A stretch of DNA of 64,000 nt from an uncultured Gammaproteobacteria bacterium (GCA_965231005.1 OZ246405.1:610709-674708); one strand, 5' to 3'. Positions 3,705 through 13,538 are shown, numbered from the stretch's first letter. Made by a program: numbers and translations. Notes: generated by a model from the letters alone, not told the origin.

Positions 3705-3903
3705 CAATTAACAAACTAGTATAGAACGTTTCTTTAGGTTGAGGATTGTATTACTAGTTATTAGTTACTAGCTAATAGTTAATAAATATAAGAAAGATTT
3801 AAACCTAGTTAGCTAATAACTAGTAACTAGTAGCTAATAACTAATTTCTTTCTACCAAAATCACCCTATACTAAGTTGTTAATTGCTAATTGTTAGTTGC
3901 TAA
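3705..3903. repeat. ~200-bp imperfect palindromic AT-rich intergenic element built from TAACTAGTTA / GCTAATTGTTAATT units (copy 1)
   Basis: The 3' arm (ctaccaaaatcaccctatactaagttgttaattgctaattgttagttgctaattg) is the reverse complement of the 5' arm. It is also the reverse complement of the start of the copy at 11417. It ends directly at a start codon. Confidence 0.6.
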
Positions 3904-3909
3904 TTGTCT

Positions 3910-4434
3910 ATGTTTTCATTTTTCAAAAAGAAGAAACCAATTAAGAAAAAGAAGAAGCGAGTGGTAAAAAGAAAGAGAAGGTTTCCTAAATCAAATTATG
4001 AACGGAGTAATGCCGTTCTTTCTGTTGATATTCGTATTTCTTCAAGAATGAAGTTGCTTACACAAAAAATTTTACAATCAAACACAACAGTTCGTCGTCA
4101 AAAGTTAAGTTCGCTCCTTGTTCAAGAGTTGTGTACAGGCACAAACATAGGACCAGTCAAAGTAAAAATTTCTGACAAAAAACAATATCATAAAAAATCA
4201 AAAGGGCGAGTGGTGTATCGTCAGTATGGATATTACAAATCAGATACAAAATATATTTATATCAATAACAGAACAGCAGTACAGCAAAAAATTCTTGCAC
4301 AAAAGACATTTTTAGACACATTGCTTCATGAGTGGTTACACCATTATGATTCTGAATATTTAAAACTTGATTCTATTCACACAACAGGTTTTTATACTAG
4401 ACTAAAGGATTTGAAAGGGAAGTTAGGCATGTAA
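3910..4434 (+). CDS. Highly basic hypothetical protein with an HExxH motif (LLHEWLHH), possibly a metallohydrolase-like protein
   Basis: ORF with ATG at 3910. Lys/Arg-rich N-terminus. HEWLH motif near the C-terminus. No SD. Confidence 0.4.
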   Translation: MFSFFKKKKPIKKKKKRVVKRKRRFPKSNYERSNAVLSVDIRISSRMKLLTQKILQSNTTVRRQKLSSLLVQELCTGTNIGPVKVKISDKKQYHKKSKGRVVYRQYGYYKSDTKYIYINNRTAVQQKILAQKTFLDTLLHEWLHHYDSEYLKLDSIHTTGFYTRLKDLKGKLGM

Positions 4435-4475
4435 ATTTTGTATCAAAAAAACCTTATTTTAGCAAAATATTAGCA

Positions 4476-4502
4476 AAAACCCCTTGACAAAAGGGGTTTT
4501 TT
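4476..4502 (+). terminator. Rho-independent terminator hairpin aaaaaccccttgacaaaaggggtttttt
   Basis: Perfect GC stem (cccctt/aagggg) followed by a T-run. The loop contains the -35 of the next promoter. Confidence 0.6.
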
Positions 4503-4512
4503 GTGCTATACT
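4484..4512 (+). promoter_or_regulatory. Consensus sigma70 promoter TTGACA-17-TATACT embedded in a terminator
   Basis: TTGACA at 4484-4489, a 17-nt spacer, TATACT at 4507-4512. It drives the GC-rich ORF at 4596. Confidence 0.6.
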
Positions 4513-4595
4513 GTGTTGTTAGTAATCTATGCTCTGCCAAGAGTATTGATGCTACATCAAACGCAACAACACAGCTTTTCACGGAGGACAACACG

Positions 4596-10644: not shown

Positions 10645-10648
10645 TTGC

Positions 10649-11416
10649 ATGGCAAATATTGTACATAGATCAATTGGTGTAGGAGTAGGAATATTTACTG
10701 TTCTTGCACTATTTCTTATTGTGAAGTTCCCAATTTGGTGGGTTCTTCTTTTAGTATTTATCATTTGGTTACTTATTATTCGTGGTTTCCAACATATCTT
10801 AAGAAAAATTATTTTTAGAAAGGATATCCAAATTCTCACGGTAGTAACCATGCTTGCCTTTATTGGTCTTCTTTTATTTGTTGAATGGAATTTGTTGCGA
10901 TCACTTTTGGTATTGCTTGGTGGAACAGTCATTGCGTTATTGCATTCATGGTCTGTCCCTTCCAGTGGATATACAACACATATAGAAAAGTCATACAGGC
11001 GAATTTTAATGATGCTTTGGGTGTTTGACACATATGGTATTCTTACAACATTGTTTGCTATAGATGTGTTTTTCCAAGGCTTTTCGTTTTGGCTTCTTAG
11101 TATTTTTTCAGGAGCATTATTTGCATTTGTGTCTTTTATGATTTGGAGAATGTATTATGATATTAGTTTTCGTCGAGCAACTATTTGGATGTCGTGTATT
11201 GGATTTATAGGAATTGAGCTGGTGTGGGTATTCCGATTGCTCCCGCTTGGATACACTGCCCTTGGACTATTTGTAACGTGGATATGGTATATTGTACAAC
11301 TCTTGTTTCGTTTTCATTTTAGTAAGGCAGGCGTGCAATGGAAACGACAAAGAATATTCCTTGGAGTTAATTTAATATTGTTTGTGGCACTTATGTTTGT
11401 TGTCTCATGGATTTAA
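10649..11416 (+). CDS. Hypothetical polytopic membrane protein
   Basis: 255-aa ORF with about 6 hydrophobic helices. Confidence 0.45.
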   Translation: MANIVHRSIGVGVGIFTVLALFLIVKFPIWWVLLLVFIIWLLIIRGFQHILRKIIFRKDIQILTVVTMLAFIGLLLFVEWNLLRSLLVLLGGTVIALLHSWSVPSSGYTTHIEKSYRRILMMLWVFDTYGILTTLFAIDVFFQGFSFWLLSIFSGALFAFVSFMIWRMYYDISFRRATIWMSCIGFIGIELVWVFRLLPLGYTALGLFVTWIWYIVQLLFRFHFSKAGVQWKRQRIFLGVNLILFVALMFVVSWI

Positions 11417-11636
11417 AACAATTAACAACTAACAATTATCAATTACCAACTTAGTATAGGGTGTTTTTGGCAGAAAGGAATTAGTTATTAGTTACTAGTT
11501 ACTAGTTATTAGCTAACTAAGTCTAGATCTTTCTTGTATTGACTATTAACTATTAGCTAATAGCTAGTAATACCATTCTCAATATAAAGAGTCTTTCTGT
11601 ACTATTTTGCTAATTGTTAATTGCTAATTGTTAATT
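11417..11636. repeat. ~220-bp palindromic AT-rich intergenic element (copy 2 of the element at 3705-3903)
   Basis: Its start (caattaacaactaacaattatcaattaccaacttagtataggg) is the reverse complement of the end of copy 1. Same core ttagttattagttactagttactagttattagctaa. Ends in gctaattgttaattgctaattgttaattATG. Confidence 0.6.
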
Positions 11637-12701
11637 ATGAATGAATCACCACATCTTCCACCAAAAACCTGTCATGTTTCTTGGTATAGCCGTGTACAGT
11701 CCTTGCCAGGATTTTTTATTATTCTAGTAATTGCTGTTATTGCTGGTGCAAGTGCTGCACTCATTGCAACCAGTTGGATGCTTCCATCATTCCTCCCAGA
11801 GGAATCAGTTCGTGTTTACAATAAAGATGTGTTAAAAGACAAACAGATTGTTGATCCATTTATTGTAAGGCATGCAAACGAAAGAACAATTAAGATCTTT
11901 GATAAAAGAAGAAAAGTAGGACAAACATTTTATTCAGATGATGCATTAATTTTAGAGACGTCACTTCTTAGTTCAGATGGATGGGCAGTTGGAGCATACC
12001 CTTCGTATCTTTCAGGAGAAGAATGGTCTTGGGAAGCTGTTGATAGTGAAGGAAATGTATATGATATTGAGAAAAAAATATTTGATAGAACAACAGGTCT
12101 TCTTTATATAAAATATGAGGGGAGTGGATTTAGAATTTTTTCTTTTTTCCAATGGGATAATTTTCCAGATCATTTATTTGTTTGGGGATTAAAAAATAAA
12201 AGTGTCGCGCAAACATTTCTCCGAGATATAAAGAAAACAACTACAAATCGAATTTATTCCATTTCTGGGCAGCATTTTTTTTACAACACAGAATCATTTG
12301 TTAGTGGCGCAACTGTTCTTGATGAGCAGGGAGCACTTGTTGGGTTTGTAGGAAAGAATGGGAAAATTATTCCAAGTTTTTGGATAGAGAATCATCTCCC
12401 TGCAATTTTAAGTGGATCATCTATTAACCTAAAGGGGTTGCCTGTAACTGGTTCTTATATAGATGTTGGTTTACAAGATAAAGAAAATCAACGAACAGGC
12501 GATATAAGCGGTTTTTATGTCAGCCATAGAGGCTCTACACCACTAAGAACTGGTGATGTGATTATTTCTATAAATGATAAGAACATCCATTCAGTATTTA
12601 CGCCGTATCACATATTAGATGCACCAGACGATTTCTCATTGTCAGTACTTCGTGGCGGTAAGGAAATTGAACTTTCTGTAGACAAGACTTTCCTAAGATA
12701 G
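11637..12701 (+). CDS. Membrane-anchored protein with a C-terminal PDZ domain
   Basis: N-terminal TM helix. The C-terminal LRTGDVIISINDKNIHS...LSVLRGGKEIELSV is a PDZ-like signature. Confidence 0.5.
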   Translation: MNESPHLPPKTCHVSWYSRVQSLPGFFIILVIAVIAGASAALIATSWMLPSFLPEESVRVYNKDVLKDKQIVDPFIVRHANERTIKIFDKRRKVGQTFYSDDALILETSLLSSDGWAVGAYPSYLSGEEWSWEAVDSEGNVYDIEKKIFDRTTGLLYIKYEGSGFRIFSFFQWDNFPDHLFVWGLKNKSVAQTFLRDIKKTTTNRIYSISGQHFFYNTESFVSGATVLDEQGALVGFVGKNGKIIPSFWIENHLPAILSGSSINLKGLPVTGSYIDVGLQDKENQRTGDISGFYVSHRGSTPLRTGDVIISINDKNIHSVFTPYHILDAPDDFSLSVLRGGKEIELSVDKTFLR

Positions 12702-12837
12702 GTCCTTCATTTAATTGGGGAAATCAGCTATACTATAGTTAATTAGTTAATTGGTTGACTAGCAAATTAGGCTATAAAATTTTTGCTTGAAAATTAATTG
12801 ACTAATTACCATTTTACAAATTAACAGATTAACCAAT

Positions 12838-13437
12838 ATGTTTCATCGTCCTTTGAGTAACATAACAAAACATTGGAAATTACTACTTCTCCTTGGTATT
12901 GCAACGGCACTTGTTGTATCGTTGATTACACTTATATTTCCTCGTGAATATCGTGCAGATGCAGACGTGCTGATTATTTCTAAATCAAGATATGGAGTTG
13001 ATCCGTACACTGTTGTAAAATCTGCAGAACGTATTGGTGAAAACGTTGCGCAGGTTATGCAAACAAATGATTTTTTTGAAAAAGTCATGAGTCAGCCAGG
13101 ATACTCTATAGACCAGGCTCGATTCCAATATATCCCTGAGCGGAAAAAAAGAAAAAGATGGAATAAAGCACTACAGCCATCAATCGTATATGGAACCGGT
13201 GTGTTACACATTAGTGCATATAGTTTACAACCAGACCAAGCAGCACAATTGGCTGGCGCAAGTGCAGACGCCTTGGTTACTCATGGTTGGGAATATGTTG
13301 GCGGTGATGTTTCAATGAAAATTGTAAATCCTCCTGTTGTAACACAGTGGCCAGTACGTCCAAATATTATTATGAATGGAATTGCTGCATTTTTCATTAG
13401 CATTGGTCTTATGGGAGCAGTCATTGCAAGAAAATAG
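12838..13437 (+). CDS. Wzz-like (polysaccharide chain-length determinant) bitopic protein, tentative
   Basis: N- and C-terminal TM helices. A Pro-rich segment (PPVVTQWPVRPN) lies before the second helix. Confidence 0.35.
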   Translation: MFHRPLSNITKHWKLLLLLGIATALVVSLITLIFPREYRADADVLIISKSRYGVDPYTVVKSAERIGENVAQVMQTNDFFEKVMSQPGYSIDQARFQYIPERKKRKRWNKALQPSIVYGTGVLHISAYSLQPDQAAQLAGASADALVTHGWEYVGGDVSMKIVNPPVVTQWPVRPNIIMNGIAAFFISIGLMGAVIARK

Positions 13438-13538
13438 TTTAGTTAAATGGTTGATTGGTTAATTAGTTGATTAGTAAGAAGAATCATTACAATATCCCCA
13501 ATAAACCAATTAACAAATACACAAATTAACCAGTACGT

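Follow-up and report, generated by a model that had tools for sequence, protein, structure and literature searches.

The window analysed here is a stretch of 64,000 nucleotides (GCA_965231005.1, OZ246405.1:610709-674708) deposited under the name of an uncultured Gammaproteobacteria bacterium, and its gene junctions hold the palindromic, AT-rich, non-coding element that is the subject of this report. The window has ~35% GC and encodes a tmRNA, a tRNA-Asp, smpB, infC-rpmI-rplT, a PK/PPDK-like gene pair, and many glycosyltransferases. Together with flanks of ~19 kb (L129, L130), 82.9 kb of host sequence was read. The closest named relatives of the organism by FtsZ are Candidatus Magasanikbacteria / Patescibacteria, and the GC content of the host is 37%, compared with 44-47% in syntenic relatives. 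Among the 45 gene starts inspected, Shine-Dalgarno (SD) sequences of the AGGAGG type are restricted to a GC-rich island at 17.8-28.6 kb; translation initiation in the host appears to be largely SD-independent. The clear promoters of the host have the form TTGACA-N17-TATACT.

Two spacers in the window, termed El1 and El2, are copies of one ~219-bp palindromic non-coding repeat in opposite orientations. A third copy, El3, lies in the L130 flank. The copies and their component parts are as follows.

3689-3907, + strand: El1, a complete copy whose orientation serves as the reference; its A half, to the right of the B half, adjoins the downstream gene (alignments A1-A3; nhmmer E 1e-66)
3689-3724, + strand: left terminal inverted repeat (TIR) of El1, a (CAATTAR)n array plus the ACTAGTATAG box (inverted repeat I6)
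3748-3847, + strand: central hairpin of El1, consisting of (TTAYTAG)n, a loop of ~25-30 nt, and (CTARTAA)n (pattern matches 3751-3778 on + and 3813-3847 on -; fold)
3866-3907, + strand: right TIR of El1, the CTATACTAAG box plus (YTAATTG)x4; the ATG (3910) of a 174-aa gene stands 2 nt further on
11417-11636, - strand: El2, a full copy that fills the interval from the TAA stop (11414-11416) of a 255-aa gene to the ATG (11637) of a 354-aa gene
11478-11570, - strand: central heptamer-array hairpin of El2 (arrays 11478-11512 on + and 11543-11570 on -; fold)
L130:7471-7689, in the orientation of El1: El3, located 9.4 kb to the left of the window, with the ftsZ terminator on one side and nrdR on the other (BLAST of the flanks)

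El1 and the reverse complement of El2 are 85% identical over 219 nt (E 1e-66), compared with only 68% when the two are aligned on the same strand, and the alignment score lies at z = 70 relative to dinucleotide shuffles. El1 and El3 share 89% identity over 224 nt in the same orientation. Pairwise identities among the three copies, two in one orientation and one inverted, are 84-89%. Identity also covers non-repetitive segments such as CCTTTCTNCCAAAANCACNCTATACTAAGTT, and the three-way alignment (A2/A3) has sharp boundaries, running from AACAATTAAC to ...TTG(C/T)T(A/T)(A/G)TTGT between unrelated flanks. An earlier note on this DNA had described the arms of the two spacers as reverse complements of each other; the relationship is stronger than claimed, as the spacers are one element in two orientations.

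Convergent low complexity, that is, independent slippage expansion of AT-rich heptamers in an AT-drifting genome without a common origin, is a very improbable source of this likeness. Similar arrays and array hairpins do occur in many unrelated genomes (cyanobacteria, Bacteroidota, and other members of the candidate phyla radiation, CPR), the GC content of the host is lower than that of its relatives, and two further spacers described below (spacers 3 and 4) share the vocabulary without alignable homology. However, the alignment of El1 to El3 covers their whole length at 84-89% and takes in the ~60% of the element made up of sequence other than heptamer arrays; its boundaries are sharp, and the El1-El2 alignment lies at z = 70. 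Convergence is refuted for these three copies by the full-length alignment and is viable only for spacers 3 and 4. The earlier note had allowed that only its own copies might exist, alike through generic AT-richness; this is rejected.

The element is 219-220 bp in length with 26% GC, and its ends read AACAATTAACAACTAG...CTATACTAAGTTGTTAATTG. The TIRs measure 34-46 nt and are 80-88% complementary across copies; the arms of El1 (3691-3724 / 3866-3899) span 34 nt at 88% complementarity and those of El3 span 46 nt at 80%. Arrays of (CAATTAR)n and (YTAATTG)n form the ends, arrays of (TTAYTAG)n and (CTARTAA)n form the centre, and unique segments with the ACTAGTATAG / CTATACTAAG box pair separate the two. 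The construction from repeated units that the earlier note recognized is borne out, in that heptamer arrays occur far above expectation: the window contains 11 matches to YTAYTAG x3 (0.00 expected) and nine to YTAATTG x3 (0.06 expected), all confined to the El1 and El2 spacers. The imperfect palindromes of ~200 bp that it had placed at 3705-3903 and 11417-11636 were also confirmed, with bounds refined to 3689-3907 and 11417-11636. Alignments of each copy to its own reverse complement score 113 (El1) and 106 (El2), compared with 28-30 +/- 6-7 for shuffles (z = 12-13), and none of the 300 dinucleotide shuffles matches these scores. The predicted RNA folds have energies of -69.3 kcal/mol for El1 (z -7.2) and -61.3 kcal/mol for El2 (z -5.2).

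With 8-13 stops per frame in all six frames, the element lacks coding capacity. Each of its 45-nt ends is closed in all six frames, because the tandem heptamers carry TAA/TAG and seven is coprime with three; such closure occurs in only 1.5% of shuffles matched for composition and, within the window, in just one further spacer. A search of Rfam yielded no family for the element, only sub-threshold matches to AU-rich plant miRNA hairpins, and the search for intrinsic terminators found no terminator-like site inside the elements; a separate canonical terminator stands just upstream of El3. Among 61 predicted base pairs, no compensatory change was observed between the three copies, a number of sequences that gives such a comparison low power, and nine pairs are broken in one copy. 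This pattern fits young repeat copies better than a structure under long-term selection. Readings of the palindromes as oriC, as NrdR boxes, or as IHF sites were dropped, the respective consensus not being visible in the sequence.

The copies lie at gene junctions. The PPDK-like gene at 567-3704 takes its last four codons and its TAG stop (3702-3704) from El1; the protein ends in ...CDSTTINN in the host and in ...CDEDDS in L178, a relative recovered, as was the host, from PRJEB17505, with an FtsZ that is 73% identical. No paper on this project turned up in a literature search. The 174-aa protein encoded downstream aligns with its L178 orthologue from the first residue, which confirms its start. 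The element ends directly at the next ATG at El2, 2 nt before it at El1, and 39 nt before it (nrdR) at El3, such that the claim of an exact end at start codons stands for El2 but not for the other two copies. At El1 and El2, it is the (YTAATTG)x4 array that ends 0-2 nt ahead of the ATG, with no SD. The earlier note had emphasized that all four of the spacers it listed run into an ATG without an SD; this is true, but it is no property of the spacers, as SD sequences are nearly absent across the AT-rich part of the window. The genes that flank the copies are functionally unrelated: a PPDK-like and a 174-aa protein at El1, a membrane protein and a PDZ-like protease at El2, and ftsZ and nrdR at El3.

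These junctions were compared with those of L178, of the L125-L128 lineage (36% identity in the El2-flanking protein), and of the contig carrying P0002 (42% identity in that protein; FtsZ 79%).

El1 site: a 205-nt spacer in the host; in L178, the PPDK-like gene and the next gene overlap as TAATG
El2 site: TAA, 220 bp, ATG in the host; TGAtATG in the L125-L128 lineage; in the contig carrying P0002, the two genes share 4 nt
El3 site: a 313-nt ftsZ-nrdR spacer in the host; 54 nt in L178

The length difference at the El3 site, 259 nt, is near the length of the element. The relatives contain neither a copy of the element nor such AT-rich palindromic spacers in the 18-21 kb covered. In that stretch, L178 has no inverted repeat whatsoever, and L125 has, besides a few weak pairs (71-80%), only a terminator-like hairpin of 25 nt. 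Absence from the orthologous spacers of relatives, which the earlier note had proposed to check, is thereby seen at all three element sites. Because these sites are empty in the syntenic relatives, the element is, on comparative grounds, a secondary, lineage-specific insertion, and the comparison shows that AT-rich inserts with inverted-repeat arms have built up at gene junctions in the host lineage. The junction-filling appearance is best explained by where insertions survive: the ancestral junctions had a spacer of -4 to +1 nt, and a tolerated insert must span from stop to start. The element need not abut a start codon, as El3 shows by ending 39 nt before the nrdR start.

The same comparison bears on whether the palindromes are integron attC-like recombination sites between gene cassettes, a reading that we regard as almost certainly wrong. 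It would accommodate imperfect palindromes that extend from just after a stop to just before the next co-oriented open reading frame (ORF), as well as successive spacers that differ in sequence with similar symmetry. Yet gene order is kept in distant relatives that lack the palindromes, and the genes are therefore not cassettes. The ends AACAATTAAC / GTTAATT likewise misfit the RYYYAAC / GTTRRRY core sites, and no integrase was detected among the window proteins scanned. Typical attC sites are also smaller than 219 bp.

On this basis, El1 to El3 probably form a family of dispersed palindromic repeats that are ~219 bp long, non-coding, and specific to the lineage, similar in type to miniature inverted-repeat transposable elements (MITEs) such as the ERIC and Correia repeats; we assign this reading a rough probability of 0.7. 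It is favored because the element is a discrete, non-coding unit with TIRs, because its copies are 84-89% identical and occur in both orientations, and because its sites are empty in relatives. The MITE-like interpretation offered in the earlier note is thus supported for El1 and El2 by the TIRs, the dispersed copies in both orientations, the third copy, and the empty sites, but the target duplication and transposase that would accompany it were not found.

Several observations count against a MITE-like family. No consistent target-site duplication occurs at the three copies (TA, TTAA, TAA, and candidates of 5-7 nt were considered), where AT-rich repetitive ends leave the boundaries uncertain by a few nucleotides. 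No transposase or other autonomous partner was found among the proteins scanned in the ~83 kb of host sequence, and the three known copies all lie within those ~83 kb. The two samples in which the organism occurs showed no presence/absence polymorphism. Metagenome and viral scans revealed no copy beyond the host: the combination of box, AGAAAG, and AATTAG gave no match in the metagenome scan; TNTACTANNTTNNTAATTGNTANTTG, which fits all six termini, gave 46 metagenome loci, none of them extending beyond the terminal-array match; and viral contigs yielded nothing relevant. A blastn search of plasmids and phages likewise yielded nothing relevant, with a single 52-nt AT-rich match. Given that no copy outside the host and no polymorphism were found, mobility is inferred rather than observed. 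The relatives are distant (73-79% identity in FtsZ; for the nearest with available DNA, 73% in FtsZ and 36-42% in the flanking protein), and the insertions could therefore be old. Finally, the effects at the RNA level (hairpin processing, leader function) are predictions, and the modelled effect on accessibility is small.

Under the MITE-like reading, the copies would have arisen through transposition in trans or some other process of duplication. Their survival may be limited to the narrow stop-to-start interval of compact operons, which would explain why they seem to fill the spacer exactly. Both orientations could be tolerated since either end would terminate an upstream frame within 45 nt, as El1 does for the PPDK-like gene, and either end would provide an A/U-rich, C-poor, SD-less leader like those of nearly all host genes. 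As El1 and El2 both sit within former operons, read-through of these copies is likely. A transcribed element is predicted to fold into an imperfect A/U-rich hairpin of ~100 bp, and in read-through transcripts the modelled probability that the bases at -20 to +12 around the start are unpaired drops to 0.27-0.35, from 0.40-0.55. Judging from ERIC and Correia repeats, the hairpin is a plausible RNase III substrate that could alter the stability of the flanking cistrons, and insertion would break the translational coupling that once linked these cistrons.

The element might instead be a selected cis-regulatory cassette that acts as a promoter or leader, as a binding array for a regulator or nucleoid protein, or as a hairpin for processing, and that was copied because it is useful; we judge this to be unlikely. 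In this version, the TATACT box would act as an outward -10 and the heptamer array as an S1-type or regulator-binding leader directly before the ATG. The CTATACTAAGTT box is invariant at all three A ends, with a related box at the B ends, and TATACT is the -10 hexamer of the host's clear promoters. However, this conservation is expected anyway given that the box belongs to the TIR, and no TTGACA-like -35 stands upstream of it. The promoter modules suggested in the earlier note are not supported by a sigma-70 scan of the elements, which was at background (48 found, 48.9 expected) and returned only a 9/12 inward-facing match at 3694-3722; the host promoters, TTGACA-N17-TATACT, are different. At El3, the element end supplies TTGTTA, followed after 17 nt by TGgTAAAAT in the flank; together (L130:7668-7696) they form a candidate hybrid extended -10 promoter for nrdR.

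A leader function for the cassette draws on other evidence. The arrays adjoin the ATG at El1 and El2, transcripts beginning after the box are predicted to be more open at the start than read-through transcripts (0.40-0.55 vs 0.27-0.35), and, for other SD-poor bacteria, heptamer repeats ahead of starts have been suggested to be sites for translational regulators (PMC4679880). Against such a role, a rough survey of the fetched loci of other genomes detected no strong bias in the orientation of heptamer arrays towards start codons or otherwise relative to neighbouring ORFs, and the proximity of arrays to ORF stops is in part an artefact of the stops within them. It also runs counter to a cassette that the flanking genes are functionally unrelated and that the same genes are without it in the relatives.

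Among unrelated bacteria, heptamer arrays that contain stops are common, as are array hairpins, and some fill the interval from stop to ATG. A scan of a genome collection with YTAYTAG x3 recovered, among the matches listed, generic heptamer microsatellites in cyanobacteria and Bacteroidota; the host genome was not among these matches. Hairpins of inverted heptamer arrays were observed in three metagenome-assembled genomes (MAGs), namely L099 (a Bacteroidetes MAG; 5486-5570, 5835-5923, and 7385-7456), L030 (a Patescibacteria MAG; 2039-2120), and L023 (a Wolfebacteria MAG; 5151-5245), where they directly follow stop codons or span a stop to the next ATG. The inverted, stop-containing heptamer-array hairpin is a widespread, little-described intergenic architecture. 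The element resembles the hairpins of these genomes in placing an inverted pair of stop-containing arrays after a stop codon and ahead of the next start or of the end of a convergent gene. In contrast to it, they are simple array-loop-array structures that lack unique segments, TATACT boxes, and nesting, and they cannot be aligned to the element beyond the arrays.

It is conceivable, though we consider it quite doubtful, that inverted stop-containing heptamer arrays are a functional, transferable gene-junction module of SD-poor bacteria (CPR, Bacteroidota, cyanobacteria). The incoming array would close reading frames, the outgoing array would be an initiation leader of the S1 type or bound by a regulator, and the hairpin would serve for processing. 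In that case, the ~219-bp element would represent a mobile form of the module, independent of orientation, that turns overlapping, coupled genes into independently controlled ones. If true, this would provide a testable handle on SD-independent translation initiation.

Among known systems, the element comes closest to ERIC/IRU of enterobacteria, Correia/NEMIS of Neisseria, and RUP of Streptococcus pneumoniae, which are small MITE-type palindromic repeats. ERIC and Correia hairpins can affect the stability of adjoining cistrons. As in these families, the unit is 100-250 bp long and non-coding, with long TIRs that make the whole of it an imperfect palindrome, and its dispersed intergenic copies are ~85-90% identical and occur in either orientation. 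Also shared are a frequent location inside transcription units, folding as hairpins, ends that can contribute promoter hexamers, and empty sites in related genomes. In contrast, no sequence similarity to these families was noted, a comparison made indirectly through the blastn search of plasmids and phages and through Rfam; the element is taken to work like these families, not to belong to them. The element further differs in that no TA or other target duplication was detected, its arms are tandem heptamers rather than unique sequence, its host is a ~1.2-Mb CPR (Magasanikbacteria-like) genome, and, where relatives have an overlapping stop and start, its copies lie exactly between the two.

The terminal arrays recall a second group of repeats. 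MacGregor (2015) described TAACTGA heptamer direct repeats a few nucleotides before starts in SD-poor Beggiatoaceae, Cyanobacteria, and Bacteroidetes, which carry stop codons, are missing from the shorter spacers of close relatives, and were proposed to have a role in translational regulation (PMC4679880). Like these, the terminal arrays of the element are stop-containing tandem 7-nt units, which their stops bar from coding sequence, just before starts in SD-less spacers whose counterparts in relatives are shorter and free of the repeats. Unlike them, they are composed of the heptamers YTAATTG and TTAYTAG rather than TAACTGA, and they form two nested inverted pairs in a fixed, dispersed unit of ~219 bp as opposed to free-standing arrays of variable length. 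Further intergenic heptamer repeats are the cyanobacterial STRR heptamers.

Small, compact genomes are typical of the CPR (Patescibacteria), and these are generally said to contain few repeats and little mobile DNA. A literature search on MITEs in the CPR returned nothing relevant. The family splits overlapping or abutting stop/start junctions, and the host has at least one more AT-rich vocabulary of inverted arms; intergenic invasion can thus reshape operon structure in a compact CPR genome. The stop-containing heptamer arrays that precede starts in SD-less bacteria are poorly understood, and the family contributes a structured, dispersed example of them. On the practical side, repeats of this kind break metagenome assemblies and shift gene-start calls.

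The earlier note had proposed a family of four members by including two more AT-rich spacers.

12702-12837, + strand: spacer 3, 136 nt, AT-rich, with TTAATTRG motifs
13438-13538, + strand: spacer 4, 101 nt, AT-rich, containing the motifs GGTTAATT / AATTAACC; its inverted symmetry is weak

This extension was not upheld, as neither spacer is a significant palindrome and the likeness to the element is at the level of motifs. The scores of the spacers against their own reverse complements (z 1.2 for spacer 3, 2.0 for spacer 4) and their folds (z -1.5 and -1.3) are within the range of shuffles. In spacer 3, the likeness is to the end of the element with its box and array and lies in the segment 12727-12765 (GCTATACTATAGTTAATTAGTTAATTGG); the local alignment to El1 gives the best score of either spacer with the element (z 3.9, with one of 300 shuffles as good); spacer 4 reaches z 3.8 with El2, and the two spacers are alike over ~16 nt (z 5.6). 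Their orthologous spacers in relatives measure 40-57 nt (spacer 3) and 3-10 nt (spacer 4). From these comparisons, spacers 3 and 4 are best described as AT-rich expansions rather than demonstrable members of the family; they are possibly decayed relatives of the element.

Other repeats and composition features were recorded in the host sequence. A second AT-rich vocabulary of inverted arms, ATTAGATA / TATCTAAT, brackets 34625-34969, L130:1473-1508, and L130:2422-2595. At the ATTAGATA-type junctions left of the window, the spacers of the host and L178 measure 36 nt vs 9 nt in one case, and 228 nt vs a TAATG overlap in the other. The copy in the window encloses a GC-rich, structured segment of ~250 nt (fold z -8.5), for which no family was found in Rfam, followed by an intrinsic terminator at ~34951-34969. 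These spacers could represent a second repeat family or a small RNA. A GC-rich palindrome, CCTGCCTGCCGGCAGGCAGG, recurs in AT-rich spacers at 9047-9070 and ~34770-34790.

Near-identical, strong promoter-like sites of the form CTTGACAAAA-N-TGnTA(T/C)A(C/G)T are present at 4484-4512, 7181-7209 (-), 17540-17568, 21713-21753, and 36184-36231 (-). Several of these are paired with a terminator-like hairpin, and they look like a shared promoter cassette.

The GC-rich island at 17792-28593 has 54-59% GC, compared with ~35% elsewhere, and its genes have a strong AAGGAGG SD; it looks like foreign DNA. A 1173-aa protein encoded within it (25072-28593) contains at least 15 cysteine-rich Dicty_CTDC repeats, and a 59-nt direct repeat of 95% identity occurs at 21944-22002 and 24885-24943. 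Paralogues within the host share only 22-42% identity. Further along the window, within an ORF at 53457-54524, three tandem 204-nt units that are 77-83% identical occupy 53697-54308 and probably encode a repeated protein domain.

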